63,977 nt of DNA, filler included, from 6 parts of 6 records of this genome joined end to end with filler, not necessarily neighbours in it, one strand, 5' to 3'. Counted from the first letter of the whole stretch, positions 1 through 59,180 are shown. Notes: generated by a model from the letters alone, not told the origin. A program made the numbers and translations.

Positions 1-875
1 TGCGCCCGATTTCGAACCTCTTCCAATTCCCCTTCGGTGGCGATACCCTGTTCCAGCAACTCTTTTTCAAAACGGGGAATCCCGTCCTTCTTTTTCATTG
101 CCGCCATCTCTTCGGGGGTACGGTAATGTTGGGGATCTCCCTCAAAGTGGCCTTTCCACCGGGTGGCCTTAATTTCAATGAGGGCCGGTCCCTTGCCGGC
201 GCGGATGTGTTTTGCCGTTTCCGTCACCGCTTCATGGACGGCCATTATGTCGTTACCGTCAACGGTGAGCCCAGGAATGCCGTAGCCCGCGGCCCTGGCG
301 GAGATGTCTTCCACCGAGCAGACGTCGTCCACGCATCCGCTGATGCCGTATTCGTTGTTGACGCATATGGCAAGGGAAGGGAGTTTCCAGCAGGAGGCCA
401 GATTGAGCGCTTCATGGAACTCGCCCCGGTGGGAGGCGCCGTCTCCAAAAAGAACCACCGCGATATCCCCCTCGCCCTTTTTTTGCAGCGCCAGGGCGAT
501 GCCGTTATTGATGGTCTGGTTGGGTCCCAGAATACCGTTACAGCCGGGGGCGTTTTTTTCAAAAACCGCCAGGTGCATGGACCCCCCCTTCCCTTTACAG
601 TACCCGGTGACTTTGCCGAAGATCTCCGCCCGCATTCGGCCCATGTCCGCGTCCCGGGCGATCATGAGGCCATGCTCCCGGTGGGTGCCGGAAATCCAGT
701 CCGATGGCCGCAAGGCCGATACGAGGCCCACCATGGGCGCTTCCTGCCCGACCCCCAGATGGACGAATCCGGGGAGCGTCCCCCCGGTTACCGCATCGGA
801 GAGGGATTCCTCGAAGATCCTGATTTTCACCATCTTTTCATACATTTCCAGCAGTTTTTCCTTGGGTAATTCCAT
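1..875 (-). CDS. acoA: TPP-dependent acetoin dehydrogenase E1 alpha subunit (3' end runs off window; not in ORF track)
   Basis: Manual translation MELPKEKLLEMYEKMVKIRIFEE..LPGFVHLGVGQEA; TPP motif FGDGASHRGEFHEALNLA..VNN; GHFEGDPQHYR loop; RBS AAAGGAG; adjacent to acoX. Confidence 0.85.
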   Translation of the reverse strand, partial: MELPKEKLLEMYEKMVKIRIFEESLSDAVTGGTLPGFVHLGVGQEAPMVGLVSALRPSDWISGTHREHGLMIARDADMGRMRAEIFGKVTGYCKGKGGSMHLAVFEKNAPGCNGILGPNQTINNGIALALQKKGEGDIAVVLFGDGASHRGEFHEALNLASCWKLPSLAICVNNEYGISGCVDDVCSVEDISARAAGYGIPGLTVDGNDIMAVHEAVTETAKHIRAGKGPALIEIKATRWKGHFEGDPQHYRTPEEMAAMKKKDGIPRFEKELLEQGIATEGELEEVRNRA

Positions 876-999
876 TGGCCATACTCCTTTCGTTTAAGGT
901 TAAACAGTGTAGAATGGTACGGATTTCCCAACAGTCATAAGACAAGGACCCGGGTTTTACGGTCATATGGGGACCCTCATCCTTAGAACCTGAAATCCT

Positions 1000-1983
1000 C
1001 TAAGCCGCCTTAAAAAGTGATTTCATGGCGGCCTTTTTGAGCGTTTGGGGGATGTCAATTACCCGTGGGCCGTCCAGTTGCAGGGTTACGGTCCATTGAC
1101 TCCCTTCAGCGATAATGTGTTCCCGCTCCCCATCCAGCGCCAGCACGGCAGGCGTATGGGATATGGTGATTTCCTCGCCGGGCTCAATGATCCGGCAGCT
1201 TTTTACCGGCACATCTCTTATGAGCCCGGGGGCGATGGGGGCCTTCACCGTTTCTCCGCCGGCGCCGATCTTGATATGAATGCCTTTTTTGCTGTCCGGG
1301 GGAAGTGGCGAAAGGTGCCCGCCGATGGATGAAAAGCCGATATTTCCGGGTTCGGCGCGGGTCAGGAAAATTTCGTCCAGAAGGGAGACATCCCAGACGG
1401 CCCGGGAACCGATAAACCCGTGACCGGAAACCACCGCATCAACCAATGCAATGTCCCTGGGGCCTGATTGATCCCTTATGGCCAGCAGAGGTGCTTTCCG
1501 GGTGCACTGCTCCAAAGGGGTTTCGTTCAAGGCAATGACGCCTGCGGCCATCCCCGCCATGGTGCTTTCAACCATAAATGGAAAAACATTGTTGGTGCCC
1601 GTTGAGATGGGTAGAAGGGGAATGTCGCCGCAGGTTTTGGCCACGGCCCGGTTGGTGCCGTCGCCGCCTAAGGTGATGATGCAGGCGGCGCCCAGATCGG
1701 AAAGGATTTTGGCTGCTGTTGTGCTGTCGTCCTGGGTCCCTTCCATGGGCATGTCAAGAAAGGAAGTCTTTAAAGAGACCTCCAAATCTTCCATGGCCCT
1801 GGGGCCGATGCGGAAATGATCGGGCATGAAGAGAATCTCTTCCACACCCATGGCCTCAAGACCCAGAATGACGCGTCTTACAATGTTGACTTTTTCGTGA
1901 TTGTCAAACACGGAGCCAAAGGCGACCATGCGGCGAATATCTTTTCCGGATGCCGGATTGGCAACGATACCGATCGGCTTCAA
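1000..1983 (-). CDS. acoX: Acetoin catabolism protein AcoX (ATP-NAD kinase-like)
   Basis: IGIVANPASGKDIRR, LGGDGTNR, STGTNNVFP, ALDGERE motifs; TTG start with GGGAGG RBS; upstream of acoA. Confidence 0.88.
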   Translation of the reverse strand: MKPIGIVANPASGKDIRRMVAFGSVFDNHEKVNIVRRVILGLEAMGVEEILFMPDHFRIGPRAMEDLEVSLKTSFLDMPMEGTQDDSTTAAKILSDLGAACIITLGGDGTNRAVAKTCGDIPLLPISTGTNNVFPFMVESTMAGMAAGVIALNETPLEQCTRKAPLLAIRDQSGPRDIALVDAVVSGHGFIGSRAVWDVSLLDEIFLTRAEPGNIGFSSIGGHLSPLPPDSKKGIHIKIGAGGETVKAPIAPGLIRDVPVKSCRIIEPGEEITISHTPAVLALDGEREHIIAEGSQWTVTLQLDGPRVIDIPQTLKKAAMKSLFKAA

Positions 1984-2345
1984 ATGTTTCCTCCCTTAAA
2001 GCATGAGATTCGCTTTTTTTATGAAACGACTATATCGAAATGCTCCTTGGGCGTCAAATGAAAATCACGACCAAAATATAATATTACAATATTGTGGAGT
2101 GAATGTACCGTTTTGTTTCGGCCCTGATAAAAGATATCCGGCTTGCCGGAAGATTTATTGACAGGTTGATCCGGCTTTTCTATGTTGGCTTAAAAACATC
2201 TTTAAAGTAGAAATTTTAACCGCTGATCCATAAACAAAAATGCCTTTTCCGTAAGATTAAGGAAAATATACCTTGATCGAACAGACCATGAACCCCACTA
2301 TTTTCATTGTGAATTTCCTTGTTGGATCTTTCGAAAGAAAATCTC

Positions 2346-5150
2346 ATGGAGCAAACTTCGTCAATGAATATTCACGAAAAAATTATAGCGGCCATGGAAG
2401 CCTCCTGGTTGATCCGGGATCTTGATGAATTATTTGAGACATCCCTTTCATTCCTTCTCCAATTGCCGTACGTCCATCATGTGGCCATCGCCCTCTTTGA
2501 TGAAAGCGACAATTTGGTGCCCGTGGCCACCGCCGAAAATGAACGGCACGGGGACCAAAAAACCCAAAAAATAAGCGCCCAAAGCTATCTTTTGAATGCC
2601 TATGTCAGGCATTCCATCCGTCGAAGAATTACCATGCCGGAATACCGAAGGGCCTTCTATTACCCCCTACTAAAACATGATGGGCTTCTGGGGCTATTGA
2701 TCATCCGATTTACCGGACGGATCCACAATGAAATCGCCCTTCTGGAAAACCTTCATTTTTTTTCTCACCACCTGGCAGGAAAAGTTCGTGAAATCATAAA
2801 AGAGCAGGAAATCAGGGCTGTGACGGAGGAATTGGACCATGTGCGGCGCCATAGCACCGAAATTCTTCAACAGGTGACCGCCCTCAGCAAGGAACTGTAC
2901 GCCATAACCGCCATATCCACAAAGATAAATCAGTCCATGGATCTGCAGAAAAGTCTTCGAAAGAGCGTCGCCAAAGTCAAGGAGGTATTTGATCCCAAAG
3001 GGGTTTTGATCTACAGGCGAACGATCCTGAAAAACGCATGGGAACTGTCCCATTGCGATATGGCGAAAGGTCTTTTTTCAGATCTTGAACATAAGGAAAT
3101 AGAGGCGTTTTTTTTAGAAGAAATTGCACAAACCAGCAAGCCCCTGCTCAAGTTCGAAAGCAGCGATTTTTTTAAGCCCGGGCTAAAAAACGGAGTTAAA
3201 AGTACATCTGCCACGATTATCGGCGTTCCCATGAAATCAAAAGTGAGGATACACGGGGTATTATTGCTTTTTCTCGAACCGGGCAGATCCTTCAACCCGG
3301 ATAATCTGAGACTCCTCTCCGGCATGGGCAATATTATGGGAATGGCCGTTGAAAATATAGACCTTTTTCACAAGGCCGAAGTGAAGAAAAGGGAATCCGC
3401 CTTTCTGGTGGACTCCATTGCCAAGTTCAATGAAAAGCTGGATCTGGAAAGGACATTGAAGTCCGTGGCGGAAAAAGGCGCCCAATTGGTCGGGGAATCC
3501 AGCTGCATCTATCTCTTTTCCGAAACCAGATATCCCATGATCCAGGTTGCCTGCGAGAATCCCAAGGGAACGCCTCGCCCAAAAGCGCATAGTATGGACA
3601 AAATCGAGCCCAGGGAACTGAGATCTTTGTACCAATCCATGAAGTCTGAAAAGAAAGCGATTCTTGTGAGGGACATCGGTAAATCAAGGCGGATTCCCAA
3701 AGAAACGAAAATCTTTTTCAAAACCGAGGACATCCGTTCACTGATCATGATGCCGTTAAGATTCAGGGGGAAAACCCTTGGATTGGTCGTTCTGGGCCGC
3801 CTCAGGAAAAAACGCCCTTTTGACCGGCACGATTTAGCCTTGTGCAAGGCCCTTGGAAGCGCGGCCGCGGTGGCCATCCAGAATTCATGGACCTATGCGC
3901 AAAGCCTTGAAATGAGCGGCTTGCTGGAACGAAAAGTCAGAGAAAAATCAACGCTGATTCAACAGCTCCACGACAAGCAGACCTCCCGTTTTGAAACCCG
4001 GGACGATATCACCTTCTGGGTCAACAATCAAAACGAATTTGTCTTTGTCAACAGGGCCATGGAAACCCTGACAGGACTTTCGAGGGAGACATTGTGCGGT
4101 GGGCACATTCTGGCGACGGATGTGGTTTTCGAGGAGGATCGAAGCCGTATAAAGGACCGTTTCATGAGTGTCCTTATGGGAGAGGCGCCCTTTTTAACAG
4201 ACCTGGAATATCGTCACCTGAACTGGAAGGGAGAAGATCACATCGTTTCCCTAACCATTTATCCCGCAAAGAAAATCTCCGGGAAAATCATCGGGATCGA
4301 GGGCATCGGCCGCAACATAAGCGAAACGAAAATGTTGGAGGCAGAATTGGAAAAAAACAAGAATCTGGCCCTGCTCGGGGAATTTTCCGGCGCCGTTGCG
4401 CACCAGATTCGAAACCCCCTCAGCAACATTTTGATGAGCATCAATCTGCTGCAAAAATTCTTGCCCATTGACGGAAACGGGCGCCTCATTGAAACAAAAC
4501 AAGCGGCGCCGGGAAAGCCCGGTCTGTTGAACGAGCAATATCTTTCCGAGCTGTTTGGAAACCTCAGGGACAGCGTCAACAATCTGAACCGAGTGGTCAC
4601 CGAAATGCTGCAATACACCCGGACCCTGAAACTGAGCCTTTCCGTTCAGCAAATAGACCTGGTCATCGATGAAACGCTGAATCGTTTGCGCAATCACATT
4701 AAAGACAAAGACATTATTGTTCAAAAGCGCTTCGATTCAAACCTGCCGCCCATCCCCTTCGATGCCGTACTCATGAGCCAGGTATTTCAAAATGTTATTC
4801 AGAATGGCATTGAAGCCATGCAGGAAGGGGGAACCCTTGAAGTTTTTTCCGGTTTGTCGGAGCAAAAAGAAGATTTTCTGAAAATTGCCGTCAAGGACTC
4901 GGGACCCGGCCTCGCGCCTTCTGAAACCGGAAAGATATTTCACCCCATGTACACCACCAAGGTTTCGGGAACCGGCTTGGGGTTGTCCCTTTCCCATCGC
5001 ATTATTGAGGCTCATAAGGGAACCATGTGGGCAGCCAACAATTCTGAAAAAGGGATGACCGTTCATATTCTGCTCCCCACGAACACCCATGAAAAAACCC
5101 CCATGCCAAAGGGAGGACCCCGTGACGCCTCATATTCTCGTAGTGGATGA
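2346..5150 (+). CDS. Cytoplasmic multi-GAF/PAS sensor histidine kinase
   Basis: GAF-like segments, PAS (FVFVNRAMETLTG), H-box VAHQIRNPL, N-box QNVIQNGIEAM, DSGPG and GTGLGL boxes; no TM segment; start uncertain (2319/2346/2364). Confidence 0.9.
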   Translation: MEQTSSMNIHEKIIAAMEASWLIRDLDELFETSLSFLLQLPYVHHVAIALFDESDNLVPVATAENERHGDQKTQKISAQSYLLNAYVRHSIRRRITMPEYRRAFYYPLLKHDGLLGLLIIRFTGRIHNEIALLENLHFFSHHLAGKVREIIKEQEIRAVTEELDHVRRHSTEILQQVTALSKELYAITAISTKINQSMDLQKSLRKSVAKVKEVFDPKGVLIYRRTILKNAWELSHCDMAKGLFSDLEHKEIEAFFLEEIAQTSKPLLKFESSDFFKPGLKNGVKSTSATIIGVPMKSKVRIHGVLLLFLEPGRSFNPDNLRLLSGMGNIMGMAVENIDLFHKAEVKKRESAFLVDSIAKFNEKLDLERTLKSVAEKGAQLVGESSCIYLFSETRYPMIQVACENPKGTPRPKAHSMDKIEPRELRSLYQSMKSEKKAILVRDIGKSRRIPKETKIFFKTEDIRSLIMMPLRFRGKTLGLVVLGRLRKKRPFDRHDLALCKALGSAAAVAIQNSWTYAQSLEMSGLLERKVREKSTLIQQLHDKQTSRFETRDDITFWVNNQNEFVFVNRAMETLTGLSRETLCGGHILATDVVFEEDRSRIKDRFMSVLMGEAPFLTDLEYRHLNWKGEDHIVSLTIYPAKKISGKIIGIEGIGRNISETKMLEAELEKNKNLALLGEFSGAVAHQIRNPLSNILMSINLLQKFLPIDGNGRLIETKQAAPGKPGLLNEQYLSELFGNLRDSVNNLNRVVTEMLQYTRTLKLSLSVQQIDLVIDETLNRLRNHIKDKDIIVQKRFDSNLPPIPFDAVLMSQVFQNVIQNGIEAMQEGGTLEVFSGLSEQKEDFLKIAVKDSGPGLAPSETGKIFHPMYTTKVSGTGLGLSLSHRIIEAHKGTMWAANNSEKGMTVHILLPTNTHEKTPMPKGGPRDASYSRSG

Positions 5151-6528
5151 TGAAATTTCTTTCTGCCGCCATATACAAGCCATACTGGAAGGGGAAGGCT
5201 ATGATGTGGACACGGCCCATGAGGCAAAGGGCGCCATTGGGCTGCTCAATTCCCACAGCTACGATATCCTGCTGACCGACATGCGGATGCCGGGGATTCA
5301 AGGAATTGAACTCATTAAGTTGGCCTTGAAACTCGATCCGGACATTTCATGTATCATCATGACCGCTTACGGCACGATCTCTTCGGCCGTCAACGCCATC
5401 AAGGAAGGCGGAAGCGATTATCTGGAAAAGCCTTTCGAGCCGGAAACCCTGCTCATGGTCGTGGCAAGGATCGTCAGGGAAAGACAATTGCTGCAGGAAA
5501 TACGCGATCTCAGAAAAGAGGTGGATAGAAAATACGCCTTTGGGAACATCATTGGAAAGAGCCATAAGATGCAGGCCATTTATGAACTGATTCAAAGAGT
5601 CGCCGCAACGGATGCAAGGGTCTTTATTACCGGTGAGACAGGGGTCGGCAAAGAACTGGTGGCCAAGGCGATCCATTTCAACAGCCCCAGAAAAAGCAAA
5701 CCCTTTGTCAGTATCAATTGCGGCGCCCTCTCCGAAACCCTGTTGGAGACTGAGCTTTTCGGACATGAAAAAGGCGCTTTCACGGGCGCCATCCAAAAAA
5801 AAATGGGGAAATTTGAATACGCGCGGGGCAGCACGTTGTTTTTGGACGAGGTGGGAGAAATCTCATCCAGAATGCAAGTGAGACTTCTAAGGGTTTTGCA
5901 GGAAAAGAAAGTTGAGCGGGTAGGCGGAAACGAATCAATTGATGTGGATGTGCGTTTGCTGTCAGCCACCAATCGAGACATTGTCAAGCGGATCAGAGAG
6001 AGGGAATTCCGAACGGATCTCTATTATCGGCTCAACGTGGTGCCTATCCACATCCCTCCCCTGAGGGAAAGGATTGAGGACATCCCTCTCTTGGTGAAAC
6101 ACTTCGTCCAGGCCTTTAACAGGGATATGAACAGGAACATTCGAGAAATTTCCGTGGCCGCCATGAACCAGTTGATGAAATACCACTGGCCCGGAAACGT
6201 CAGGGAGTTGGAGAATATTCTGGAAAGGGCCTTTGTGGTCACCGACGGCGATGTTATCGATACGGTATTTTTTTCCCATGGCCCCCACGGCGCCGCAACG
6301 GAAGAATCGTCATCCTATCATGTGGATATTGACATACCCTTCGCCACGGCCCGTTCCGTTGTTGTCAGCCGATTTGAAAAGGCCTATCTTTATGAAGCCC
6401 TCAAGCGATATGAGGGGAATGTGTCCAAAACGGCCAGCAAGACCGGAATCAATCCCAGAACGCTTTGGCGAAAAATTAAAGCCTACGCCCTGAATCATGG
6501 GGGATTTAAGTCCGGAAACCCACAGTAA
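5122..6528 (+). CDS. NtrC-family sigma54-dependent response regulator
   Basis: Receiver ILVVDD..LTDMRMP..MTA..EKP; GETGVGKE, GAFTGA, FLDEVGE, WPGNVRELEN; Fis HTH; GTG start after GGGAGG. Confidence 0.95.
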   Translation: MTPHILVVDDEISFCRHIQAILEGEGYDVDTAHEAKGAIGLLNSHSYDILLTDMRMPGIQGIELIKLALKLDPDISCIIMTAYGTISSAVNAIKEGGSDYLEKPFEPETLLMVVARIVRERQLLQEIRDLRKEVDRKYAFGNIIGKSHKMQAIYELIQRVAATDARVFITGETGVGKELVAKAIHFNSPRKSKPFVSINCGALSETLLETELFGHEKGAFTGAIQKKMGKFEYARGSTLFLDEVGEISSRMQVRLLRVLQEKKVERVGGNESIDVDVRLLSATNRDIVKRIREREFRTDLYYRLNVVPIHIPPLRERIEDIPLLVKHFVQAFNRDMNRNIREISVAAMNQLMKYHWPGNVRELENILERAFVVTDGDVIDTVFFSHGPHGAATEESSSYHVDIDIPFATARSVVVSRFEKAYLYEALKRYEGNVSKTASKTGINPRTLWRKIKAYALNHGGFKSGNPQ

Positions 6529-6723
6529 CCCCGTGTCAGAGTGCGACATCTGCGTCACACTCATAACAATCTAAAATAACGTCATAATTTTAGATCCGGC
6601 TTCTTTTCCTAATTTTTTGACCTACGAATGTCACAGTGGTCGTCACATGATGAGGCCTGGAAATACCGGGTCCGACCACGGCTTTCCCCCAATCTTGGGT
6701 TAAAACCGCCATGATAAACTATT

Positions 6724-6739
6724 TGGCACTAAGTTTGCA
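6724..6739 (+). promoter_or_regulatory. sigma54 (-24/-12) promoter of mtaA-mtaC-cobW
   Basis: TGGCAC-TAAGT-TTGCA matches TGGCAC-N5-TTGCW. Confidence 0.85.
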
Positions 6740-6990
6740 TTATAACCTGCTATTGTAGCATCAACAACTACCGATGCCACGGAAACAAATTTTTCATTAA
6801 ACAATCGATATTCATCATAAAATAGGCCTCCCCAAAACGCGACGGACGGCACGGGGAGGGCACTTGTTTTTCAAGTAATTCAGAAACACCCCCAAACACT
6901 GCTCAAAAGATATGCCGGCCTTTGCCAGCGAAGGCAAAGGCTATCCAATGATTATGCACGTAACATTTTTCCTTGAGGAGGATACAAAGA

Positions 6991-8004
6991 ATGAATGCAA
7001 AAGAGCGCGTAATGGCGGTTTTGAACCACCAGAAGCCGGATCGGATGCCCTGTTTCGGCGCCAACTCAACCGTCTCCTACGGTCAGATGGAAAAGGTGCA
7101 GGCTTTCTGGCCGGATGGGCACCGGAATGGAGAAGTCATGGCCAAACAGGCCCTGGCCGCCTATACGGTACTCGGGTTTGACGCGGTGAGGGTTCCCTTT
7201 TGTCAAACCTTTGAAGCGGTGGCCCTGGGATGCAAGTACAAGCCGGCGGCAAATCTGGAAGGGGGCGAAGGCATTCCCGGAATTGACCACCCGCCCCGCT
7301 ATACTATATCCGACACACCGGAATTCCCGGACGATTTTCTTTCCAGGGGCAAAATACCGGAATTGCTCAAAGCCGTTCGACTGTTAAAAAAAGAGGTGGG
7401 GGACGAGGTGCCGATTGTTGCGGGAATCATCGGGCCCTTTACCGTTGCCGGTTCTCTTCTGGATGCGGTTCCCATTCTTAAAGCAAGCTTCAAATACCCC
7501 GACAAGCTTCGGCCCTTCCTGGACGTGGGGGAAAAGGCGGGCACAGCCCTTGCCAAGGCCCTGATAGAAGCGGGCGCCGATATGATTTCCTGCGAAGATA
7601 TGACCGCATCCCCCGAACTCATCGCTCCAACAACTTACAGAGACCTGGAATTGGAGTATCAGAAGAAACAGTTTGACGCCATCGCCGTTCCCAAAATCCT
7701 TCATATTTGCGGCAACGTAGATCCCATTGTGGGATGGATGGGACAAACCGGGGCGGACATACTGAGCCTGGAACCCAAAGCGGATGCCGGACTTGCCAGA
7801 AGAAAATGCGGCCCCCACATGATTCTGATGGGCGGCGTGGACACCGCAACCACGCTCTTCATGAAAGACGCCGCCACCGTAAAGGAGGGGTGTGAGGAGT
7901 CCATTTCAGACGGCATCCAGATTTTGGCTCCGGGATGCGCCGTGGCCCCGGGCACTCCCGATGAGAACCTGCTGGCCATGGTGGACGTGGCCAAAGGCCA
8001 TTAG
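6991..8004 (+). CDS. mtaA: MtaA/CmuA-family methylcobamide:thiol methyltransferase (URO-D fold)
   Basis: GFDAVRVPFCQTFEA, GPFTVA, Zn-ligand motifs LHICG and APGC; GAGGAGG RBS; context with mtaBC. Confidence 0.85.
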   Translation: MNAKERVMAVLNHQKPDRMPCFGANSTVSYGQMEKVQAFWPDGHRNGEVMAKQALAAYTVLGFDAVRVPFCQTFEAVALGCKYKPAANLEGGEGIPGIDHPPRYTISDTPEFPDDFLSRGKIPELLKAVRLLKKEVGDEVPIVAGIIGPFTVAGSLLDAVPILKASFKYPDKLRPFLDVGEKAGTALAKALIEAGADMISCEDMTASPELIAPTTYRDLELEYQKKQFDAIAVPKILHICGNVDPIVGWMGQTGADILSLEPKADAGLARRKCGPHMILMGGVDTATTLFMKDAATVKEGCEESISDGIQILAPGCAVAPGTPDENLLAMVDVAKGH

Positions 8005-8083
8005 CGATAGTGCAATTTTGGATATTGGTGGTTCTTGCCGGAACCATTTTGATGATGCAAACACTGACGTAAGGAGAGGAAAA

Positions 8084-8830
8084 ATGAAAGTACTGAATGA
8101 TTTTTCTGACATTTTCAAGCGGTACGACCTCGACCTTGAGGTTTCGGGCGGCGCCAGGGAAGTTTCTAATGACGCGATTCTTCAAAAAATCGCTCAGTTT
8201 GTGGTGGATGGAGACGACGAAGGGATCGGTCCCGCCGTCAAAGAGACATTGGAAACAAAATCTCCCCTGGAGGTCATCAACGATGCTCTGATCGCGGGCA
8301 TGAACGAGGTAAGCCGCCTGTGGGAGGAGGGGGTATATTTCCTTCCCCAGGTGATTCTCTCATCGGACGCCATGAATGTGGGCATCGCCCTGTGCGAAAA
8401 CGCCATGGGCAAATCCATGGAAAGAAAAGCGCCCGTTGTCACCCATACGGCCGAGGGAGATATCCATGACATCGGTCAGGTGATTGTGAACGCCCTGTTG
8501 ACCGCAAACGGTTTCGAGGTCATCGATATGGGAGCGGACGTTCCGGTGGACAAGGTTGTGGCTGCGTGCAAACAGCATAAACCCGTGATGGTCACCGGAA
8601 CGGCCCTGATGACCACCACCATGACCGCCTTTCCCAAAATCGCCCATCAGCTTAAGAATGCCGGACTCGCCATCCCCTTCATATGCGGCGGCGGCGCGGT
8701 GTGCGAAGAGTATGTAACCGGTTACGACCTTGGGGTCTGGGGCAAAGAGGCAAGCCAGGCGCCTGACATGGCCGAGGACGCCCTGGCGGGAGAAAGCTGG
8801 GAATCCATGCGGAGCACATGGAACGGATAG
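8084..8830 (+). CDS. mtaC: Methanol corrinoid protein MtaC
   Basis: B12 motif AEGDIHDIG; FLPQVILSSDAM, TGTALMTTTM, IPFICGGGAV and N-terminal KRYDL resemble methanogen MtaC; AGGAGAGG RBS. Confidence 0.9.
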   Translation: MKVLNDFSDIFKRYDLDLEVSGGAREVSNDAILQKIAQFVVDGDDEGIGPAVKETLETKSPLEVINDALIAGMNEVSRLWEEGVYFLPQVILSSDAMNVGIALCENAMGKSMERKAPVVTHTAEGDIHDIGQVIVNALLTANGFEVIDMGADVPVDKVVAACKQHKPVMVTGTALMTTTMTAFPKIAHQLKNAGLAIPFICGGGAVCEEYVTGYDLGVWGKEASQAPDMAEDALAGESWESMRSTWNG

Positions 8831-8865
8831 CGCCGACAAAAAGTTGATGGAGAGAATTACAGGGT

Positions 8866-9912
8866 ATGATCGTTGATATCGTCTATGGGTTCTTAGGTTC
8901 CGGCAAAACTACTTTTATCACAAAAGTCCTCGAGAGATGGGGTAGCGATGAAAGAACCGTGGTGCTTGTCAATGAGTTCGGTGATGTGGGCATTGACGGC
9001 GACCTGTTGAGCAATCACGGCGGAAATGTTGTTGAAATGCCGAGCGGGTGCATTTGCTGCACCCTCCAGGCGGATTTCAGGAGTCAGATGCTTGACATCT
9101 GCCGCTCGATCCGTCCGGAAAGGGTCATTGTTGAACCGACCGGCGTTGCCACGATCGCACAGATTCAATCGATTTTTCATGCGCAGCTCTTTGAGGATGC
9201 CTTTGAGGAAATCCACAATATCTTGATTGCGGACGTCTCCGGTTTCATGGGGTTATATAAGGCCAATCGCCATTTCGTGGAATCGCAGGTGAAGCACGCC
9301 CATCTATCCATTTTAAACAAGTGCGACAAAGTCGATAAAAAAAAGGCCATGGTAACCCAAGGGGCCATATCGGCGATCAATCCAAACATCACCGTTTTAA
9401 TGAGTGAATTCGGCGCAGTGGACTGGGCGGAGTATCAGTTCGCCCTCTCCTCCATCGGAAATCTTGAAAAAGACCGCTTGCAAGACGTCCATCATTCAAC
9501 CCTTGCGGCAGGTTCAACAAACGAACTTCCTTCCTTTCAACACATCCACGAGACCAATGGTGAAGGACCCCATGTTCATTTGAATGAAACGGAAAATGCT
9601 CTGGGATACGAATCTTTCGGGGATATTTACCCCGGCCTTTCATTTGAAAAAGGCCCCTTGGAGACGGTTTTTCAGAAATTCAAATCCCGTTCCCGAATGG
9701 GAGACATTGTCAGGGCCAAAGGCGTGTTTCGCATCGGCCAGGGGTGGATATTGATAGAACTGGCATCCGGTGAGTTTTCATCTCAGCCCCTCAGGAACGG
9801 GTCGAACAGCAAGTTCTCCATTATCGGAAAGGAACTCAACCGGGAAATGATCCGCGAAGCCCTGGCCCGTTGCCAATCCAGGGGGCTAAAGCAAGGAAGC
9901 GGAAACCCTTAA
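8866..9912 (+). CDS. COG0523/CobW-family metal-chaperone GTPase
   Basis: GFLGSGKTT, NEFG, GCICC, EPTGVA, NKCD, His-containing linker, RAKG C-terminal domain. Confidence 0.92.
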   Translation: MIVDIVYGFLGSGKTTFITKVLERWGSDERTVVLVNEFGDVGIDGDLLSNHGGNVVEMPSGCICCTLQADFRSQMLDICRSIRPERVIVEPTGVATIAQIQSIFHAQLFEDAFEEIHNILIADVSGFMGLYKANRHFVESQVKHAHLSILNKCDKVDKKKAMVTQGAISAINPNITVLMSEFGAVDWAEYQFALSSIGNLEKDRLQDVHHSTLAAGSTNELPSFQHIHETNGEGPHVHLNETENALGYESFGDIYPGLSFEKGPLETVFQKFKSRSRMGDIVRAKGVFRIGQGWILIELASGEFSSQPLRNGSNSKFSIIGKELNREMIREALARCQSRGLKQGSGNP

Positions 9913-10015
9913 ACCAAAAATAACTTACCTATAATTTCGAATCTTCACACGCTTCTTTCTGAAAAAAATTTACTTCCTTTTTTTTCAGGACAAGCAATTC
10001 ATCAAGGATTGACCC

Positions 10016-11449
10016 ATGGAAAAAGCAACCGATATTCTTAAACCCACCGTTCTCATCGTTGACGACCGGCACAGGAGTTTCCGCCTTTTGCTCCGATTGA
10101 TATCGGAAGACCTGTTTTCGCCCCTTTGGGCGCCCGATGAACAGCAGGGGATGAAGTTGCTGGAAGCGCACGCCCACCGCGTGCGAATCATCGTCATCGA
10201 CCTTAAATCCTCCGGAATGGGGGGCGGCGGGTTCCTGCATCAAGCCAGAAAAACGGCGCCTCACGCCTCCATTCTCATCACCGCGCCCCTGGGGCCTTTC
10301 CTGTATCAGAACGGTGAATTCTACGATTTTCACGGTTCCAGTCTAAAGAAGGACATCAATGCCATCCTGCTGAGCATTATTGAAAAGATGGCGCCATCCC
10401 GCGGCCCCCATGAAAACACCCATCCGGAACGGGAATGGAAAGAACGTTTCGGCCTCATCATCGGCGCAAGCCGAAGCATCAATGAAATCTACGGCCTGAT
10501 TGAAAAATTAAAGACCTCCAATGCCACGGTCCTGATCCAGGGAGAAAGCGGCACGGGAAAAGAGTTGGTCGCACAAACCATCCATAAAACCGGCCTCAGA
10601 AAAGACCGTCCATTTGTGGCCCTGAACTGCGGCGCCATTCCCGCCAATCTGGTGGAAAGCGAGCTGTTCGGACATGAGAGGGGGGCCTTCACCACGGCAA
10701 TCCATCAAAGAAAGGGTAAATTCGAGATTGCCCGCGGCGGTACACTGTTTTTGGATGAAATCGGCGAACTGGATCATCAAGTGCAGGTTAAGCTTCTTCG
10801 GGTTCTTCAGGAAAGAGAATTCCAACGGGTTGGTGGGAACAGGTCGTTTAAAACCGATGTCCGGGTGATTGCGGCCACCAATCGAAATTTAAAAAACGCC
10901 GTTCAAAGGGGGCATTTTCGCGATGACCTTTTCTATCGTCTCAACGTGGTGCCCATATATATCCCCCCCTTGCGCGAAAGACGCGGAGACATCCCCCTGT
11001 TGTTGGATCATTTCTTCCACAAGGCAGCGGACCGGGAGGGTCGAGGGGCGCCTTTTCTCACCGAAGAGGCCGCAAGCCTTTTGATCAATTACCCCTATCC
11101 GGGAAATGTAAGAGAACTGGCCAATATCATCGAACGGTTGGCGGTGATCTGTTCCCATGAAAAGATCACAACCCGGGACCTGCCGTTGGAGGTCCGTGAG
11201 GCAGGGGACGTTGCTCCGGTTTTCAGCGAAATGATAGGGTGTTTGCCTGATGGGGGTGTTTCATTAAAAGAAATGGAGAGAGCGCTTATCCTGAAAACCC
11301 TTGAAATGACATCGGGGAACAAAGCGGCGACAGCCAGAAGCTTGGGCATTACGCGACGATTGCTCTATCTCAGGCTTTGTGAATACGGCCTTTCAGTCGA
11401 CCGTAAAGCGTCACCTGAGGTGACATTTGAAACAGCGGCTGTCCCCTGA
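10016..11449 (+). CDS. sigma54-dependent transcriptional activator with atypical receiver-like N-terminus
   Basis: GESGTGKE, GAFTTA, FLDEIGE, YPGNVRELAN, GNKAATARSLGI HTH. Confidence 0.92.
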   Translation: MEKATDILKPTVLIVDDRHRSFRLLLRLISEDLFSPLWAPDEQQGMKLLEAHAHRVRIIVIDLKSSGMGGGGFLHQARKTAPHASILITAPLGPFLYQNGEFYDFHGSSLKKDINAILLSIIEKMAPSRGPHENTHPEREWKERFGLIIGASRSINEIYGLIEKLKTSNATVLIQGESGTGKELVAQTIHKTGLRKDRPFVALNCGAIPANLVESELFGHERGAFTTAIHQRKGKFEIARGGTLFLDEIGELDHQVQVKLLRVLQEREFQRVGGNRSFKTDVRVIAATNRNLKNAVQRGHFRDDLFYRLNVVPIYIPPLRERRGDIPLLLDHFFHKAADREGRGAPFLTEEAASLLINYPYPGNVRELANIIERLAVICSHEKITTRDLPLEVREAGDVAPVFSEMIGCLPDGGVSLKEMERALILKTLEMTSGNKAATARSLGITRRLLYLRLCEYGLSVDRKASPEVTFETAAVP

Positions 11450-11456
11450 GGTTACA
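11409..11456. promoter_or_regulatory. Candidate upstream activator sequence: two 17-bp imperfect palindromes
   Basis: CGTCACCTGAGGTGACA (11409-11425) and TGTCCCCTGAGGTTACA (11440-11456), 31 bp apart, about 90-140 bp upstream of the sigma54 promoter. Confidence 0.6.
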
Positions 11457-11546
11457 GGGTGGATTGCCGCCCTGTAAGCAGCGGGTTTTACGACATATAA
11501 TCCATATAAATAACAACATGTTACAAAACATATAAAGGGGACCGTT

Positions 11547-11562
11547 TGGCACGCTAATTGCT
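11547..11562 (+). promoter_or_regulatory. sigma54 (-24/-12) promoter of mtaB-ramA
   Basis: TGGCAC-GCTAA-TTGCT. Confidence 0.88.
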
Positions 11563-11719
11563 TTTAAAAAAGGTGCATTAATTGAACAATAACCATTTTT
11601 TTCAGAACGGGGTTTCGGGAGGGGGTGCGGAAAAGGCTGAAAAGAGTTTTAACCAGTTTGTAAATGGAGACAAGCACGATTGTCGACCTTTTTCAATGCT
11701 TAGAATAAAGGGGATAAAA

Positions 11720-13096
11720 ATGGCACGAAAAAAGATTACAAAGATGGCTTACGGCAATGGCACTGAAATGATGTTTGGTACCGCAAAACATCCGGTAACC
11801 ACCAAGAGAGGAATCGAAATCGGCGGGGGGTTCGTGCATCCGGAGGTGGTTCCCCATCCCAGACCGGGAAGTGAAAAGACCATGAAAACCCTGTTAAGGG
11901 AATACGAAAAAGCCAACGGAGATGCCTTGGAAAGGATGGTCATCGTGGGGCATCCCACTTTGCAAATTGAAAATGAGCATGTCTTTCAGATGACTCACAA
12001 CCCCAAATGGGGCGGGGAAATCGCAGCCCAGACCGCCAGGCAGATGGATGACTATCTTGAAAGATACGGGCTCAAAGCCTCTTATCGGTCCACCCCCGCG
12101 GATCTGCGCAAACCGGACATGGTCAATATGCGGGACAGCGACTATACAAGGGAAATCATAGAGAGCTTCGAAGAATGCTCCAAGTACGCGGACGTGGTAT
12201 CCATCGAATCCATGGGCGGCAAAGAGATCTTCGACCATGCCATCATTCGAAACGATATCGGCGGCATCCTCTTCGGCATCGGGGTCTTAGGCGCCATCGA
12301 CATGGAATGGATGTGGGACCAGATCGTTGCCATCTGCAAAAAGAACGACTGCATTCCCGGCGGGGACACCAACTGCTCCGAAGCCAACACGGCCATGTTC
12401 ATGGCGGGCGGCATGACATCCAAGGACGTGCCCCACGTGATCGCCGCGCTGGCCAGGGCCATCGCCGCCTCCAGAACCCTGGTGGCCTATGAGTGCGGCG
12501 CCACCGGTCCCACCAAGGACTGCGCCTACGAGGATCCCATCATCAAGGCCATGTCCGGCGTGCCCATCTCCACCGAGGGAAAGACGAGCGCCTGCGCCCA
12601 TTCCGACCTTGCCGGCAATCTCATCATGGCGGTCTGCGACCTGTGGAGCAACGAGGCGGTCGAATATCACGACATGTTCGGCGCCACCACCACATCGGTT
12701 TTCGCGGAGATCCTGGGCTACGACGTGGCCATGCTCAACACATCCATTAAACTGGGCCACCAGGAACAGATGAAGGAGATCCTGGTCACCTCCGACAAAT
12801 ATCGGGATTCCCACAGCCTGATTGTGGCACCGGACAATGCCTGGGAAATCGGCAACGCCATCGTCAGCAACCGTGCCACAAGCAATTATGCCAGCGCCAG
12901 GGCCGGCGCCATGAAAGCGGGCGAAATCATTCTGGCGGATGCTCAGATGAAATTGACCGCTCTGGAAAAAAGCGCTCTTGAAAAGGCCATGAATGACATG
13001 GAAGCCCTCCCCGATGCTGAAGGGGACTTCATTGACCAGTGCCTGGCCAAGTATAAAGATGTCAAGGGGTTCAACCCCGGGTCTTACGGACTGTAG
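11720..13096 (+). CDS. mtaB: Methanol:corrinoid methyltransferase MtaB
   Basis: KMAY..MMFGTAKHPV, IESMGGKE, GGDTNC, GPTKDCAYE (Zn-ligand motifs), EGKTSACAHSD, DLWSNE, C-terminal FNPGSYGL. Confidence 0.93.
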   Translation: MARKKITKMAYGNGTEMMFGTAKHPVTTKRGIEIGGGFVHPEVVPHPRPGSEKTMKTLLREYEKANGDALERMVIVGHPTLQIENEHVFQMTHNPKWGGEIAAQTARQMDDYLERYGLKASYRSTPADLRKPDMVNMRDSDYTREIIESFEECSKYADVVSIESMGGKEIFDHAIIRNDIGGILFGIGVLGAIDMEWMWDQIVAICKKNDCIPGGDTNCSEANTAMFMAGGMTSKDVPHVIAALARAIAASRTLVAYECGATGPTKDCAYEDPIIKAMSGVPISTEGKTSACAHSDLAGNLIMAVCDLWSNEAVEYHDMFGATTTSVFAEILGYDVAMLNTSIKLGHQEQMKEILVTSDKYRDSHSLIVAPDNAWEIGNAIVSNRATSNYASARAGAMKAGEIILADAQMKLTALEKSALEKAMNDMEALPDAEGDFIDQCLAKYKDVKGFNPGSYGL

Positions 13097-13142
13097 CCGT
13101 TGTTATGGATGCAGGACATTGGATCGTAAGATTTGATTTGGG

Positions 13143-13196
13143 GGGGCAGAGCATGATACATTGAATTTCATATGGGCTCTGCCCCTTTCCTTTTTT
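13143..13196 (+). terminator. Hairpin with pyrimidine tract between mtaB and ramA (partial terminator or stabiliser)
   Basis: GGGGCAGAGC (13143-52) / GCTCTGCCCC (13176-85) followed by TTTCCTTTTTT. Confidence 0.55.
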
Positions 13197-13290
13197 CCAC
13201 AGGGAAAATCTTTGGATGATACGGAGAAGCATATCTGTCTCAAGTGCAAAGGCAGGTTTTTAAAAAAAACAGGGAGGCGCAGCAAAACAA

Positions 13291-14988
13291 ATGGCAAAAC
13301 TGGGCATTGCTTTGGACCTGGGCACAAGCGGTTTTCGAGGACACGCCATCGATCTCCACCAAGGGGGGATCATTTTATCCACCGCTGTCACCACCCGTCA
13401 CCCTCTTCCCGGGGCCAATGTGATCGACCATCTTCATTTTGCCCTGGAAGTGGGCATTGAAAAAGCCCACGCGGTTATGGTGCAATCGGCCAATCAGGTG
13501 ATCAACCACCTGAAGATTGAAAAAAAAGATGTGGTGCGACTGGCCATTTGCGGCAACCCCATCCAACTTTCCCTGTTTCAGGGAATCGAGTTCAGGGATT
13601 TGGCCTATGCCGGGAAACGTAAACTGGAATCCCTGGGGGTCGTCCCGCCCAAAAGGGACGCCCTGATCCTGAAGGCAAAGGAAATACCCGGGCTTGATTT
13701 GCCGGATGACGCCGGTGTTCTGATCCCCCCGGCCGTTCGACATGAAATCGGCGCCGATGCACTGGCCATGATGATTCAAACCGGCATGCTGGAAAAAGAT
13801 GAAACAGCCATCGTCACGGACTACGGTACCAATGCCGAAATGGCGCTTATTTACAAGGGGACCGTCTACACCGGTTCCACCGCGGCGGGTCCCGCCCTTG
13901 AAGGTCAACAGATCGAAGACGGTCTTCTGGCCCTTCCCGGCGCCATTTCGGACGTCGATTTCGAACCGGATGAAAGCGTTGACGCGGCGGTCGGCTTCAG
14001 GCGGATCTCCCGTGGGAGCCGACCCCTCCACGGAAGATTGAAAACGCATATCCTCAATGAAGAGATGACCCCCTTATCCGGGGATACGGTGGATCCCGCA
14101 ACGGGGTCCGTCCTGGAAAAGGGTGAATTGAGGGCTGCGGGGATTACGGGTACCGGAGTGGTTGCCCTCCTCAGCCAGGGAAAAAAGGCCAACCTCATCA
14201 GCATTCCGAAAATAAACACGACGGATACGGAAATCCATCTTCCCGACGGGATCAAGTTTACCGAAAAAGACCTCTCAGAGGCCGGAAAAGCCATCGGATC
14301 CGTCAGGGCCGGACACATCACCCTCTGCCGGGAAGCCGGAATAGGGGTGGAGGACATTGAGACCGCCTATATGTCGGGGGCGTCCGGCACCTATGTGGAC
14401 GCTCTGAAAGCCCAGGAAATCGGCATGACCCCCGCCAAGGTCAAAAAAATCTATCAGGTGGGCAATACCTCCCTGGCCATGGCGGCCGATATGGTCAGAG
14501 ACGAAAACAAGCTCCGGCACATGAAACAGGTAGCCGATGAATTGCGACAGCATCACTGTATGTTTGCCGAGTCCAAGGTGTTCGAGAAAGTCTATATTCT
14601 GGAACTGTCCCACTGGACCGAAGGGATGCCCTTGAAACAATACCAGAAATTCTTAAAGAAATATGGACTTCCCGCTTTGAAAGAAGTCACGTCCATTCCC
14701 CAGGTCATCAAAACCGTTGAGAGGGACATCCCAGACCTGGGCGTCATGGGGCTTACCATTATTCCCGACATTGGGAAGCGAAAGACCGTTTTTTTCGATG
14801 GTTGCCTGGGCGATGACGCCTGCGCTCGGGAATGCCCGGAAAATGCCCTTGAAATGCTGAAACAGGATGACGTTTTTGGAATCCGCATCAATCTGGCCCT
14901 GTGCGACGGCGTTGCCTGCAAGCGATGCGAAAGGGTTTGCAATGAAAAAGTATTCTCCCTCCTTGAACTGCTGGTCGCGGAAGATTGA
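13291..14988 (+). CDS. ramA: RamA/RamM-type ATP-dependent corrinoid reductive activase
   Basis: GIALDLGTSGFR, RHPLPGANVIDHLHFA, HEIGADALAM, TDYGTNAEMAL, GSTAAGPALEGQ, SGASGTYVDA; C-terminal ferredoxin-like Cys motifs; no N-terminal 2Fe-2S domain. Confidence 0.88.
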   Translation: MAKLGIALDLGTSGFRGHAIDLHQGGIILSTAVTTRHPLPGANVIDHLHFALEVGIEKAHAVMVQSANQVINHLKIEKKDVVRLAICGNPIQLSLFQGIEFRDLAYAGKRKLESLGVVPPKRDALILKAKEIPGLDLPDDAGVLIPPAVRHEIGADALAMMIQTGMLEKDETAIVTDYGTNAEMALIYKGTVYTGSTAAGPALEGQQIEDGLLALPGAISDVDFEPDESVDAAVGFRRISRGSRPLHGRLKTHILNEEMTPLSGDTVDPATGSVLEKGELRAAGITGTGVVALLSQGKKANLISIPKINTTDTEIHLPDGIKFTEKDLSEAGKAIGSVRAGHITLCREAGIGVEDIETAYMSGASGTYVDALKAQEIGMTPAKVKKIYQVGNTSLAMAADMVRDENKLRHMKQVADELRQHHCMFAESKVFEKVYILELSHWTEGMPLKQYQKFLKKYGLPALKEVTSIPQVIKTVERDIPDLGVMGLTIIPDIGKRKTVFFDGCLGDDACARECPENALEMLKQDDVFGIRINLALCDGVACKRCERVCNEKVFSLLELLVAED

Positions 14989-14994
14989 GGGTAA

Positions 14995-15615
14995 ATGAGG
15001 GCTGAAGAAAAAGGAAAAACGGCAGTCATGGACCGAAGGGAAGCAGATGCGGCGATACTCCAGGCCATAGAAAAGAGCAGCGGCATTATGGAGGCTGCCC
15101 CTTTTTTTCCGGAAGACCGCAAAAAGATTCTGGATATTGAGCTGGACGCCGAGGAAAGATCCCTGATGGGACTGGGAAAGGTGATCAATACCGGCGTGAG
15201 GGAAGTCCTTGATTGCGATTTGATCTACGTGGCGCTCAACAACATGGAATTTGACTGGGGACCTCATGCCACCTTGTTGATGAAAAAGGGCCGGGAAGTG
15301 GTGGGGGAGGAAGTCCGGGATAAGGACCGGATTGCCCAATTGTCCCGTCAAAAGAATGTCTGGTTCATGCACAAGAGTTTTGTCGTATACAGGGATAGGG
15401 TCCGGTTTCCGGAGGATATCATGAAAAAGGTCTGCTATTTTGAAATTCCCTCGCTTCCCGCACAATGGTGCAATGTCGAAGATGATCAACTGCAATGCGG
15501 GCCCATAATTCACGCCAATCCTTCCACGCCTTCCGATGTTTTCTTGAAGGATCATTATTTCAAAGGGATGGATCAACACGGGTCCGGAACGATTCTCATC
15601 GGCGTACGGAAATAA
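14995..15615 (+). CDS. Hypothetical protein co-transcribed with ramA
   Basis: 206-aa ORF starting 6 nt after the ramA stop; globular composition. Confidence 0.75.
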   Translation: MRAEEKGKTAVMDRREADAAILQAIEKSSGIMEAAPFFPEDRKKILDIELDAEERSLMGLGKVINTGVREVLDCDLIYVALNNMEFDWGPHATLLMKKGREVVGEEVRDKDRIAQLSRQKNVWFMHKSFVVYRDRVRFPEDIMKKVCYFEIPSLPAQWCNVEDDQLQCGPIIHANPSTPSDVFLKDHYFKGMDQHGSGTILIGVRK

Positions 15616-15924
15616 CCGGGCGAGAAGAAGGGGCGCAGTGATGATCTTTTCAAAGGAAATATTCAAAACCCCGACCTGTCGAACCGCATGCGCCGGCAAA
15701 GATGACGGGGGAAATAGAAAAAAATTCGAAAACTCAAGCGTTTTTTGACAAACCCGAAAAAAAATGGTGAAAAAATATTTGACAGGGAGAGAGCACCGCC
15801 CTCGCGCCAGGACCCGTATTTCACCGGCAACCATCAAGAGGCTTCGATGAACGTCATCTTGGCACCCACGGTGGCAGTAATCCATTGGTCCCGAAATCTC
15901 TCCATCAGGATGCGCTGGGCATAA

Positions 15925-16024
15925 NNNNNNNNNNNNNNNNNNNNNNNNNNNNNNNNNNNNNNNNNNNNTTAATTAATTAANNNNNNNNNNNNNNNNNNNN
16001 NNNNNNNNNNNNNNNNNNNNNNNN
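15925..16024. other. Artificial contig spacer
   Basis: N44-TTAATTAATTAA-N44. Confidence 0.99.
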
Positions 16025-21106: not shown

Positions 21107-21206
21107 NNNNNNNNNNNNNNNNNNNNNNNNNNNNNNNNNNNNNNNNNNNNTTAATTAATTAANNNNNNNNNNNNNNNNNNNNNNNNNNNNNNNNNNNNNN
21201 NNNNNN
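21107..21206. other. Artificial contig spacer
   Basis: N run with TTAATTAATTAA. Confidence 0.99.
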
Positions 21207-28931: not shown

Positions 28932-29031
28932 NNNNNNNNNNNNNNNNNNNNNNNNNNNNNNNNNNNNNNNNNNNNTTAATTAATTAANNNNNNNNNNNNN
29001 NNNNNNNNNNNNNNNNNNNNNNNNNNNNNNN
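28932..29031. other. Artificial contig spacer
   Basis: N run with TTAATTAATTAA. Confidence 0.99.
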
Positions 29032-50740: not shown

Positions 50741-50840
50741 NNNNNNNNNNNNNNNNNNNNNNNNNNNNNNNNNNNNNNNNNNNNTTAATTAATTAANNNN
50801 NNNNNNNNNNNNNNNNNNNNNNNNNNNNNNNNNNNNNNNN
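50741..50840. other. Artificial contig spacer
   Basis: N run with TTAATTAATTAA. Confidence 0.99.
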
Positions 50841-58212: not shown

Positions 58213-58312
58213 NNNNNNNNNNNNNNNNNNNNNNNNNNNNNNNNNNNNNNNNNNNNTTAATTAATTAANNNNNNNNNNNNNNNNNNNNNNNNNNNNNNNN
58301 NNNNNNNNNNNN
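58213..58312. other. Artificial contig spacer
   Basis: N run with TTAATTAATTAA. Confidence 0.99.
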
Positions 58313-59082: not shown

Positions 59083-59180
59083 AAGCTAGAATTATCTTAG
59101 CCTAAAGAAAAAAAATATCAATTTGACCATAAAACAATAATAAAGTAGAATGTTTTCAGCTTTTTAAAATGTGGGGAAAT

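Follow-up and report, generated by a model that had tools for sequence, protein, structure and literature searches.

Among the closest described systems for methanol methyl transfer in sulfate reducers is the operon Desku_0050-0060 of Desulfofundulus (Desulfotomaculum) kuznetsovii, whose MtaA, MtaB and MtaC proteins are reported to be induced by methanol plus cobalt and whose MtaB groups with those of methanogens rather than with those of acetogens; the published model proposes flux to CO2 via methyl-tetrahydrofolate (Sousa et al. 2018, PMC5770442). Here we describe a methanol methyltransferase (mta) gene cluster with an MtaB of the same methanogen-grouping kind, located in a 63,977-base stretch of assembled DNA that we refer to as the window. 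We conclude, with a probability of roughly 0.72, that the locus is the Desulfobacterota version of the bacterial methanol:corrinoid methyltransferase system. The cluster is an old bacterial lineage common to dozens of sulfate-reducing species, not a fresh methanogen import, and known families together with published precedent account for most of it. Loci from the Bacillota, the phylum of D. kuznetsovii (for example L153), have MtaA, MtaB, MtaC, CobW and RamA in common with the window but fall in a separate clade, with 56–61% identity for MtaB and 41–48% for MtaA, the D. kuznetsovii locus itself not being part of this comparison; a 195-residue protein encoded at the end of the window cluster went undetected in a search of two Bacillota genomes.

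The MtaCB, MtaA, RamA/RamM and COG0523 proteins of Methanosarcina belong to the same families and carry the same motifs as those of the window, and COG0523 subfamily 13 is reported to co-localize with mtaA/B/C and ramM in that genus (Haas et al. 2009, PMC2770081). However, the identities between the two are 31–49%, the proteins lie in separate clades, and the window MtaA, MtaB and MtaC score below the corresponding NCBIfam equivalog cut-offs; the relatives are also without Mcr, and control of the cluster is by sigma54 in place of archaeal regulators. The MtaABC systems of the acetogens Acetobacterium woodii, Eubacterium and Moorella resemble what we propose here in that they are bacterial and pass methanol methyl groups via a corrinoid protein into the Wood-Ljungdahl pathway, but the acetogen MtaA is described as an unrelated type of enzyme, of about 29.7 kDa and acting on tetrahydrofolate, together with an activase of the O-demethylase (RACo) type (PMC13391211). 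The mta operon of E. limosum is described as having an AraC-type regulator, MtaR, acting at a sigma70 promoter (PMC13602510), unlike the sigma54 promoters of the window. Finally, the Type 1 mlp clusters (Kountz and Balskus, PMC10418091) share with the window bacterial URO-D/coenzyme M methyltransferase-like proteins, a corrinoid protein and an activase, and as described there they contain no tetrahydrofolate methyltransferase and are proposed to carry out methyl-sulfur chemistry; by the same description they differ from the window in having no MtaB and several Mlp paralogues, and in being found mostly in Firmicutes.

Organization of the mta cluster

Every gene of the mta cluster lies on the plus strand of the first contig of the window (positions 1–15924, G+C 0.515), and gene identities on this contig were assigned with Pfam and NCBIfam profile searches. 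The order is a sensor kinase, a sigma54-dependent response regulator, a -24/-12 promoter site, an mtaA-like gene, mtaC, cobW, a second sigma54 activator, a second -24/-12 site, mtaB, ramA, and the gene for the 195-residue protein. An initial annotation of this DNA had recognized mtaA, mtaC, cobW, mtaB, ramA and an unknown gene together with two -24/-12 promoters, all of which are confirmed by the profile searches and a motif scan. It had also placed a sigma54 activator gene in front of each operon; there are indeed two such genes, but the placement needed correction, as the second lies between cobW and mtaB.

MtaB, the methanol:corrinoid methyltransferase (MT1), is encoded at 11720–13096, the likely start within an open reading frame (ORF) of 11582–13096, and matches PF12176 with 674 bits over profile positions 2–460 of 460, corresponding to the full length of the family. 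It aligns end to end with Methanosarcina barkeri MtaB (2I2X chain A, E 5.5e-137), and the ESMGGKE, GDTxC and KDCxYE stretches, which presumably hold the Glu, Cys and Cys zinc ligands of the M. barkeri enzyme, are all kept; residues E163, C219 and C268 are invariant in an alignment of ten sequences (A1). The MtaA-like protein (6991–8004, likely start within ORF 6973–8004) is a methylcobamide methyltransferase (MT2) of the URO-D fold family, matching PF01208 with 222 bits and scoring above the subfamily cut-offs of TIGR01463 (260.6 against 235.4) and NF004889 (291.4 against 244). In the alignment with M. mazei MtaA (4AY7, E 1.2e-60) the LHICGN and LAPGC motifs are matched, and the His-x-Cys and distal Cys that we take to form the zinc site are kept.

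The corrinoid protein MtaC (8084–8830, with the likely start in ORF 7892–8830 following a AGGAGAGG box) consists of a B12-binding_2 cap (PF02607) and a B12-binding Rossmann domain (PF02310), and contains GDIHDIG, an instance of the DxHxxG motif. The CobW/COG0523 G3E GTPase (8866–9912) matches PF02492 with 126.9 bits and also PF07683 (CobW_C), and has a GSGKT P-loop and a GCICC motif, both of which we take to be characteristic of COG0523/CobW proteins. It is presumed to be a metallochaperone for the zinc or cobalt sites of the system.

Bacterial ancestry of the cluster

Relatives were collected with an MtaB scan of one genome per species, which yielded 97 relatives among 104 candidate stretches, and the best 80 were kept (L001–L080); the scan patterns were derived from the query, so that close relatives are favoured. 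All 80 of these loci are bacterial by title, and in 38 of them an orthologue of the embedded second activator is adjacent to mtaB. Both Desulfospira joergensenii DSM 10085 (L002) and a Desulfatiglandales metagenome-assembled genome (MAG; L005) have the complete window order of regulator-mtaA-mtaC-cobW-activator-mtaB-ramA-unknown, and in the MAG all eight genes are present with 67–87% identity. The closest named MtaB, 96% identical, is from 'Desulfobacteraceae bacterium 4572_87', bearing out the initial proposal of a bacterial, Desulfobacterota-like host.

Several other arrangements are found among the relatives. A Desulfomonilaceae-type locus has the order regulator-mtaA-mtaC-mtaB-cobW-unknown-ramA, the Bacillota and Actinomycetota have mtaB-mtaC-cobW-ramA, and the Dehalococcoidia arrangement likewise differs from that of the window. 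An mtaC-mtaB-ramA-DUF1638 arrangement occurs in Verrucomicrobiota, Bacteroidota, Pseudomonadota and others; in L066–L080 (for example L080:9406–10194 and L071:11063–11851), which include Verrucomicrobiota, Bacteroidota, Rhodocyclaceae and Methylococcaceae among others, the DUF1638 protein follows mtaC-mtaB-ramA and there is no mtaA. One locus assigned by title to a Chloroflexia MAG (L004) encodes an MtaB 90% identical to that of the window, is nested among Desulfobacterota rows and keeps the activator-mtaB-ramA-unknown order, reflecting either a recent transfer or a mis-binned contig. Three loci (L008, L009 and L014) contain a second URO-D gene with 26–32% identity to MtaA a few kb downstream of the cluster, at about 14–16.6 kb in the locus, and in L009 a second corrinoid protein is encoded nearby; this second URO-D gene may belong to another methyltransferase system.

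The initial annotation interpreted the locus as an archaeal module acquired by this bacterium. To the bacterial relatives we added a second scan led by archaeal MtaB, which gave 76 loci, mostly of Methanosarcinaceae, Methanobacteriaceae and Methanosuratincola; tree outgroups and archaeal identifiers were supplied by a search of a 50%-cluster library, and tblastn segments containing a stop (one RamA row and 11 MtaC rows) were dropped from the trees. Identities of the window proteins to archaeal sequences are 42–48% for MtaB, 31–37% for MtaA, 37–47% for MtaC and 43–49% for RamA, compared with 56–91% to bacterial sequences for the four proteins. In an 89-row MtaB tree built with a quick search, the window falls in a 16-row, mostly Desulfobacterota clade (support 95) that is sister to Dehalococcoidia (96) and lies within a 37-row bacterial group (100) and a 51-row all-bacterial group (99), with a 26-row archaeal clade apart (99). 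A careful search with 41 rows gives a split between bacteria and archaea supported at 100/99 and present in 200 of 200 bootstrap trees. The 53-row MtaA tree is congruent with that of MtaB, uniting Desulfobacterota and Dehalococcoidia (99) within a 32-row bacterial group (89), and in both the RamA tree (59 rows) and the MtaC tree (50 rows, with a long-branch warning) a single domain change parts archaea from bacteria. Because all four proteins lie in bacterial clades apart from the archaea, an outcome that the initial annotation had itself named as refuting, the archaeal-import reading fails.

MtaB is rare in the phylum, with two carriers among 301 evenly drawn genomes, both already among the known carriers, and seven among 201 genomes of the order of D. 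joergensenii; its inheritance is therefore patchy. This patchiness, the match of the component types to those of methanogens, and the position of the bacterial clade as sister to the methanogen clade when the 41-row tree is rooted on distant MtaB paralogues (96/92) speak for a module recently taken from a methanogen, or for an archaeal-bacterial chimera. Against this stand the low identities to archaea and the strength of the MtaB split, as well as the interleaving of bacterial sigma54 genes with mta genes in 38 loci, and we regard such a recent origin as highly improbable. The assembly evidence points the same way. In an independent assembly of a possible source run, one contig of 19,968 nt covers 1–15924 without differences and stops at 15924, and contigs from three other studies, at roughly 90% identity, span 1336–6216 (kinase into regulator) and 6187–14900 (mtaA to ramA) in the same order. 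Since the gene order also recurs in 38 of the 80 loci, the mta contig is not chimeric, and the assembly artefact considered initially is excluded. Archaea and bacteria may nevertheless have exchanged the module long ago, whichever of them was the donor.

Sigma54 promoters and activators

Exact matches to TGGCAC-N5-TTGC occur just twice on the two strands of the window, at 6724–6738 (TGGCACTAAGTTTGC) and at 11547–11561 (TGGCACGCTAATTGC). Both are on the plus strand and intergenic, with GG at -24 and GC at -12 in the consensus spacing, the first lying 267 nt before the start of mtaA and the second 173 nt before that of mtaB. When up to one mismatch is allowed there are nine matches where 4.5 are expected, an expectation that does not refer to the exact pair alone. 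Of 36 window-type loci, 29 agree with the consensus at nine or more of its ten positions in the site upstream of mtaB (17 of them exactly), compared with 38 of 1000 random stretches drawn from the same loci. The same type of scan shows no conservation of the mtaA site among relatives, with one of 30 loci reaching at least nine of ten positions, and the mtaA half of the sigma54 wiring can therefore be claimed for this organism only.

The sensor histidine kinase (2319–5150; GAF, PAS, HisKA and HATPase_c domains by Pfam) is the presumed partner of the response regulator (5089–6528; REC, AAA+ Sigma54_activat and HTH_8 by Pfam and NCBIfam), because the two genes are adjacent and their ORFs overlap by 62 bases. 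The GAFTGA loop is the part of such activators that normally contacts sigma54, and the response regulator has it in canonical form; an 84% identical orthologue occupies the same position in the Desulfatiglandales MAG. The second activator (10016–11449), with a weak receiver-like N-terminus followed by AAA+ and HTH_8 domains (Pfam and NCBIfam), has GAFTTA instead of GAFTGA. Among its 38 orthologues, 20 have GAFTTA, nine have Ser at that position, six have the canonical Gly, and three gave no match; in L001–L080 the replacement of GAFTGA by GAFTTA or GAFTSA in 29 of the 38 constitutes a conserved departure.

A pair of 16-nt palindrome-like sequences (GTCACCTGAGGTGACA and GTCCCCTGAGGTTACA) is located at 11410–11456 on the plus strand, 31 nt apart and approximately 90–135 nt upstream of the second promoter, and may at best be a weak candidate for activator binding sites; it is not conserved, being present in six of 36 relatives' loci compared with 85 of 1000 background stretches. 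Rfam searches at gathering scores gave no matches anywhere in the window, and between 6500 and 7000 there were none at E <= 1 either, so that the long mtaA leader yielded no riboswitch. A scan for terminators and sigma70 promoters gave counts near the shuffled expectation and did not help to place the operon limits; the two transcription units referred to here are putative.

In a Bacillota MAG (L052:4981–9368), a sigma54 activator with GAF and PAS domains and an exact TGGCAC-N5-TTGC site precede mtaC-mtaB-mtaC-cobW-ramA, so within the bacterial clade mta genes are under sigma54 control outside the Desulfobacterota as well. A literature search, which did not extend to supplements, found no description of sigma54 control of mta genes.

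RamA and the adjacent 195-residue protein

The RamA-type ATP-dependent corrinoid reductive activase (13291–14988) matches TIGR04270 with 742 bits against a cut-off of 500. Its Raco_middle domain begins at residue 4, followed by the ASKHA domain and Fer4_7 at residues 505–553, and there is no N-terminal 2Fe-2S domain. Cysteines 505, 511, 515, 538, 543, 546 and 550 are invariant in 29 sequences and provide the motifs for two C-terminal 4Fe-4S clusters. The parts of the cluster are accordingly of the methanogen and not the acetogen kind, as had been recognized initially, both in the URO-D/zinc-type MtaA and in a RamA with C-terminal Fe-S motifs in place of an N-terminal 2Fe-2S domain.

The last gene of the cluster (15028–15615, within ORF 14995–15615) encodes a protein that matches no Pfam or NCBIfam model, and its likely start is placed at 15028 because its homologues are 195 residues long. 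There are 357 of these homologues, most of exactly that length, and not one has a Pfam domain or a name that tells of its function; 24 members searched against Pfam gave no match, even with the threshold relaxed to E <= 1. With a family profile, ORFs adjacent to mtaA, mtaB or ramA are detected in 12 Methanobacteriaceae and two Methanosuratincola-type loci (E 3e-18 to 5e-14), and one or two copies in each of five Methanosarcinaceae genomes (E 1e-22 to 1e-37). The protein adjoins RamA in Desulfobacterota, Dehalococcoidia and Methanococcoides, is near RamA in Methanosuratincola, and lies within mta clusters in Methanobacteriaceae; a homologue is present in one of five bacterial genomes whose mta clusters are without it. 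In Methanococcoides sp. FTZ1 (L165:6710–12154) one homologue is directly upstream of RamA, with an MTTB-family gene and a corrinoid protein coming after, in a methylamine cluster, and the family is therefore tied to RamA outside methanol clusters as well.

The AlphaFold model of the 195-residue protein is confident (pLDDT 90.4). Foldseek comparison with the PDB returned nothing at E <= 0.001, and a protein atlas search gave no usable match. In a VIA-align structural search, nitroreductase-type flavoproteins account for nearly all of the top 44 rows, with Z scores of 4.4–7.2 over 101–125 aligned residues, which is below the caution line of 8 for that tool; the model thus weakly suggests a nitroreductase/FMN-like fold. 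A prediction of the complex with RamA, in which the tool did not use the alignments, scored 0.01 (against a mark of 0.34) and is evidence neither way. We take the protein to be a RamA-associated accessory factor, possibly flavin-binding. A relationship of the family to DUF1638 was considered and rejected (hhalign probability 0.1).

Methyl donor and methyl acceptor

Gene content was examined in the genomes of five relatives that carry the cluster, in place of that of the window organism. DsrA scores over the cut-off in all five, all five have CdhC/acetyl-CoA synthase, and MtaB is single-copy in each. McrA is present in none of the five, and the coenzyme M synthesis genes are not consistent, with ComA found in one genome and ComE over the cut-off in another.

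The most likely role of the cluster is to transfer methyl groups from methanol to a corrinoid protein and so to supply a methyl oxidation that is coupled to sulfate reduction. MtaB, as a zinc enzyme, would cleave methanol and methylate Co(I)-MtaC, and the MtaA-like MT2 would hand the methyl group to a carrier that the literature assumes to be tetrahydrofolate. The methyl group would then be oxidized via a reverse Wood-Ljungdahl pathway with sulfate as the electron sink. RamA is expected to re-reduce oxidized Co(II)-MtaC at the expense of ATP, with the 195-residue protein as a putative accessory factor tied to it, and the COG0523 GTPase probably aids metal loading. Transcription would be sigma54-dependent, the kinase and response regulator pair driving mtaA-mtaC-cobW, and the second, embedded activator driving mtaB, ramA and the gene for the 195-residue protein.

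A number of observations weigh against this interpretation, including the rarity of MtaB in the phylum, the non-recurrence of the promoter upstream of mtaA, and the GAFTTA loop of the second activator, all presented above. Each of the three core proteins scores below its methanogen equivalog cut-off, MtaB with 660.8 bits against 720 (NF040651), MtaA with 286.6 against 400 (NF040654, MtaA_Meth) and MtaC with 261 against 420 (NF040655), and the dsr and Wood-Ljungdahl genes are those of relatives, not of the window's own organism. The invariant zinc/thiol triad of MtaA fits a thiol acceptor better than it does tetrahydrofolate, and neither Pfam searches nor locus comparison identified a pterin-type methyltransferase in the cluster. 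D. joergensenii, which has the same cluster, is reported to produce sulfide with methanol but not to grow on it (Fischer et al. 2021, PMC8048578), and the abstract of Sim et al. (2021, PMC7808614) states that no Gram-negative methanol oxidizer carries mtaB. The same paper places the D. joergensenii MtaB with that of D. kuznetsovii. In favour of the interpretation are the induction of the homologous D. kuznetsovii operon by methanol plus cobalt (PMC5770442) and the bacterial mtaB transcripts, including those of a Desulfobacterota MAG, that are reported from paddy soil (2026 preprint, bioRxiv 10.64898/2026.08.27.747368). With methanogen-clade MtaB in sulfate reducers and the mtaB of D. joergensenii both in print (PMC5770442, PMC7808614), the initial description of the bacterial pathway as undescribed was overstated.

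The nature of the MtaA-like enzyme raises an alternative, that it is a true thiol methyltransferase whose product is not methyl-tetrahydrofolate but a methyl-thioether (methyl-coenzyme M, or a bacterial thiol or sulfide in methylated form). All 55 bacterial rows and all 29 archaeal rows (84 of 84) retain the His-x-Cys...Cys triad that aligns with the zinc site of M. mazei MtaA, the scores reach the MtaA/CmuA and methylcobalamin:coenzyme M methyltransferase subfamily cut-offs, and the cluster is without a pterin-binding methyltransferase. The different, smaller MtaA that acetogens are described as using for tetrahydrofolate (PMC13391211) and the reported methylation of non-native thiols by M. 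barkeri MtaA (PMC13618148) are also consistent with such a role. However, the inconsistent coenzyme M synthesis genes and absence of McrA among the five relatives do not fit easily with it, there is no evident route from a methyl-thioether to energy conservation, and the model published for D. kuznetsovii has methyl-tetrahydrofolate as the product (PMC5770442). We therefore consider a thioether product unlikely, although if formed it would represent an undescribed methyl-thiol route in sulfate reducers.

A broader and doubtful proposal is that the methanol methyl group passes through an unidentified thiol carrier or sulfide, before or instead of tetrahydrofolate, and that the 195-residue protein is a universal partner supplying electrons to the corrinoid reactivation system in both domains. 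The thiol-carrier part is prompted by the zinc/thiol-type MtaA, which stays invariant in sulfate reducers that lack coenzyme M.

Among the URO-D relatives of MtaA, CmuA serves as an MT1 and MtsA fills the MT1 and MT2 roles alike. By analogy, the cluster could serve other or several methyl donors, with the URO-D protein as a second MT1 (for methylthiols, halomethanes or methylated metalloids) loading the same MtaC. The placement of mtaA-mtaC and mtaB-ramA behind separate promoters with separate activators would be in keeping with this, as would the sister MtaC-MtaB-RamA-type clusters that have no MtaA, and the paddy soil preprint links bacterial mtaB transcription to arsenic demethylation (bioRxiv 10.64898/2026.08.27.747368). 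However, MtaB is full-length, scores highly in the methanol-specific family and retains the active-site alignment, and the tree of MtaA agrees with that of MtaB, as anticipated for partners. Use of other or additional donors thus seems quite improbable, and methanol is the substrate that we favour.

Other features of the window

The window is composed of six contigs with G+C contents from 0.378 to 0.57, separated by N44-TTAATTAATTAA-N44 spacers at 15925–16024, 21107–21206, 28932–29031, 50741–50840 and 58213–58312, which have no strand assignment and which we take to be artificial six-frame-stop linkers. Adjacency across the spacers is therefore meaningless, and genes beyond 15924 are not neighbours of the mta cluster. 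ORFs that reach into spacers (such as 21564–28979) are cut by contig ends. The low-G+C (0.394) contig containing 21564–28931 has a huge ORF, 2471 residues as listed, with pentraxin and LamG/ConA-like domains; its product is probably secreted or adhesin-like and truncated here. The contig at 29032–50740 is prophage-like, with genes for an HK97-gp10-like protein, major capsid protein, prohead protease, portal, large terminase and HNH endonuclease, and a tyrosine integrase at 49077–50210. Another low-G+C contig encodes a hybrid histidine kinase (59169–61271) with an N-terminal PocR sensory domain, a domain known from B12/propanediol regulation.

Biological significance

Methanol is usually seen as a substrate for which methanogens face no competition. 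A B12-dependent methanol system distributed patchily across sulfate-reducing Desulfobacterota, with representatives in metagenomes of marine, vent and soil origin, is relevant to the question of which organisms consume methanol in sulfidic sediments. Three leads from the locus can be followed in D. joergensenii, a carrier available in culture: the acceptor that a thiol-type MtaA uses where coenzyme M is lacking, the two-activator sigma54 control, and the RamA-adjacent protein that is shared with methanogens.

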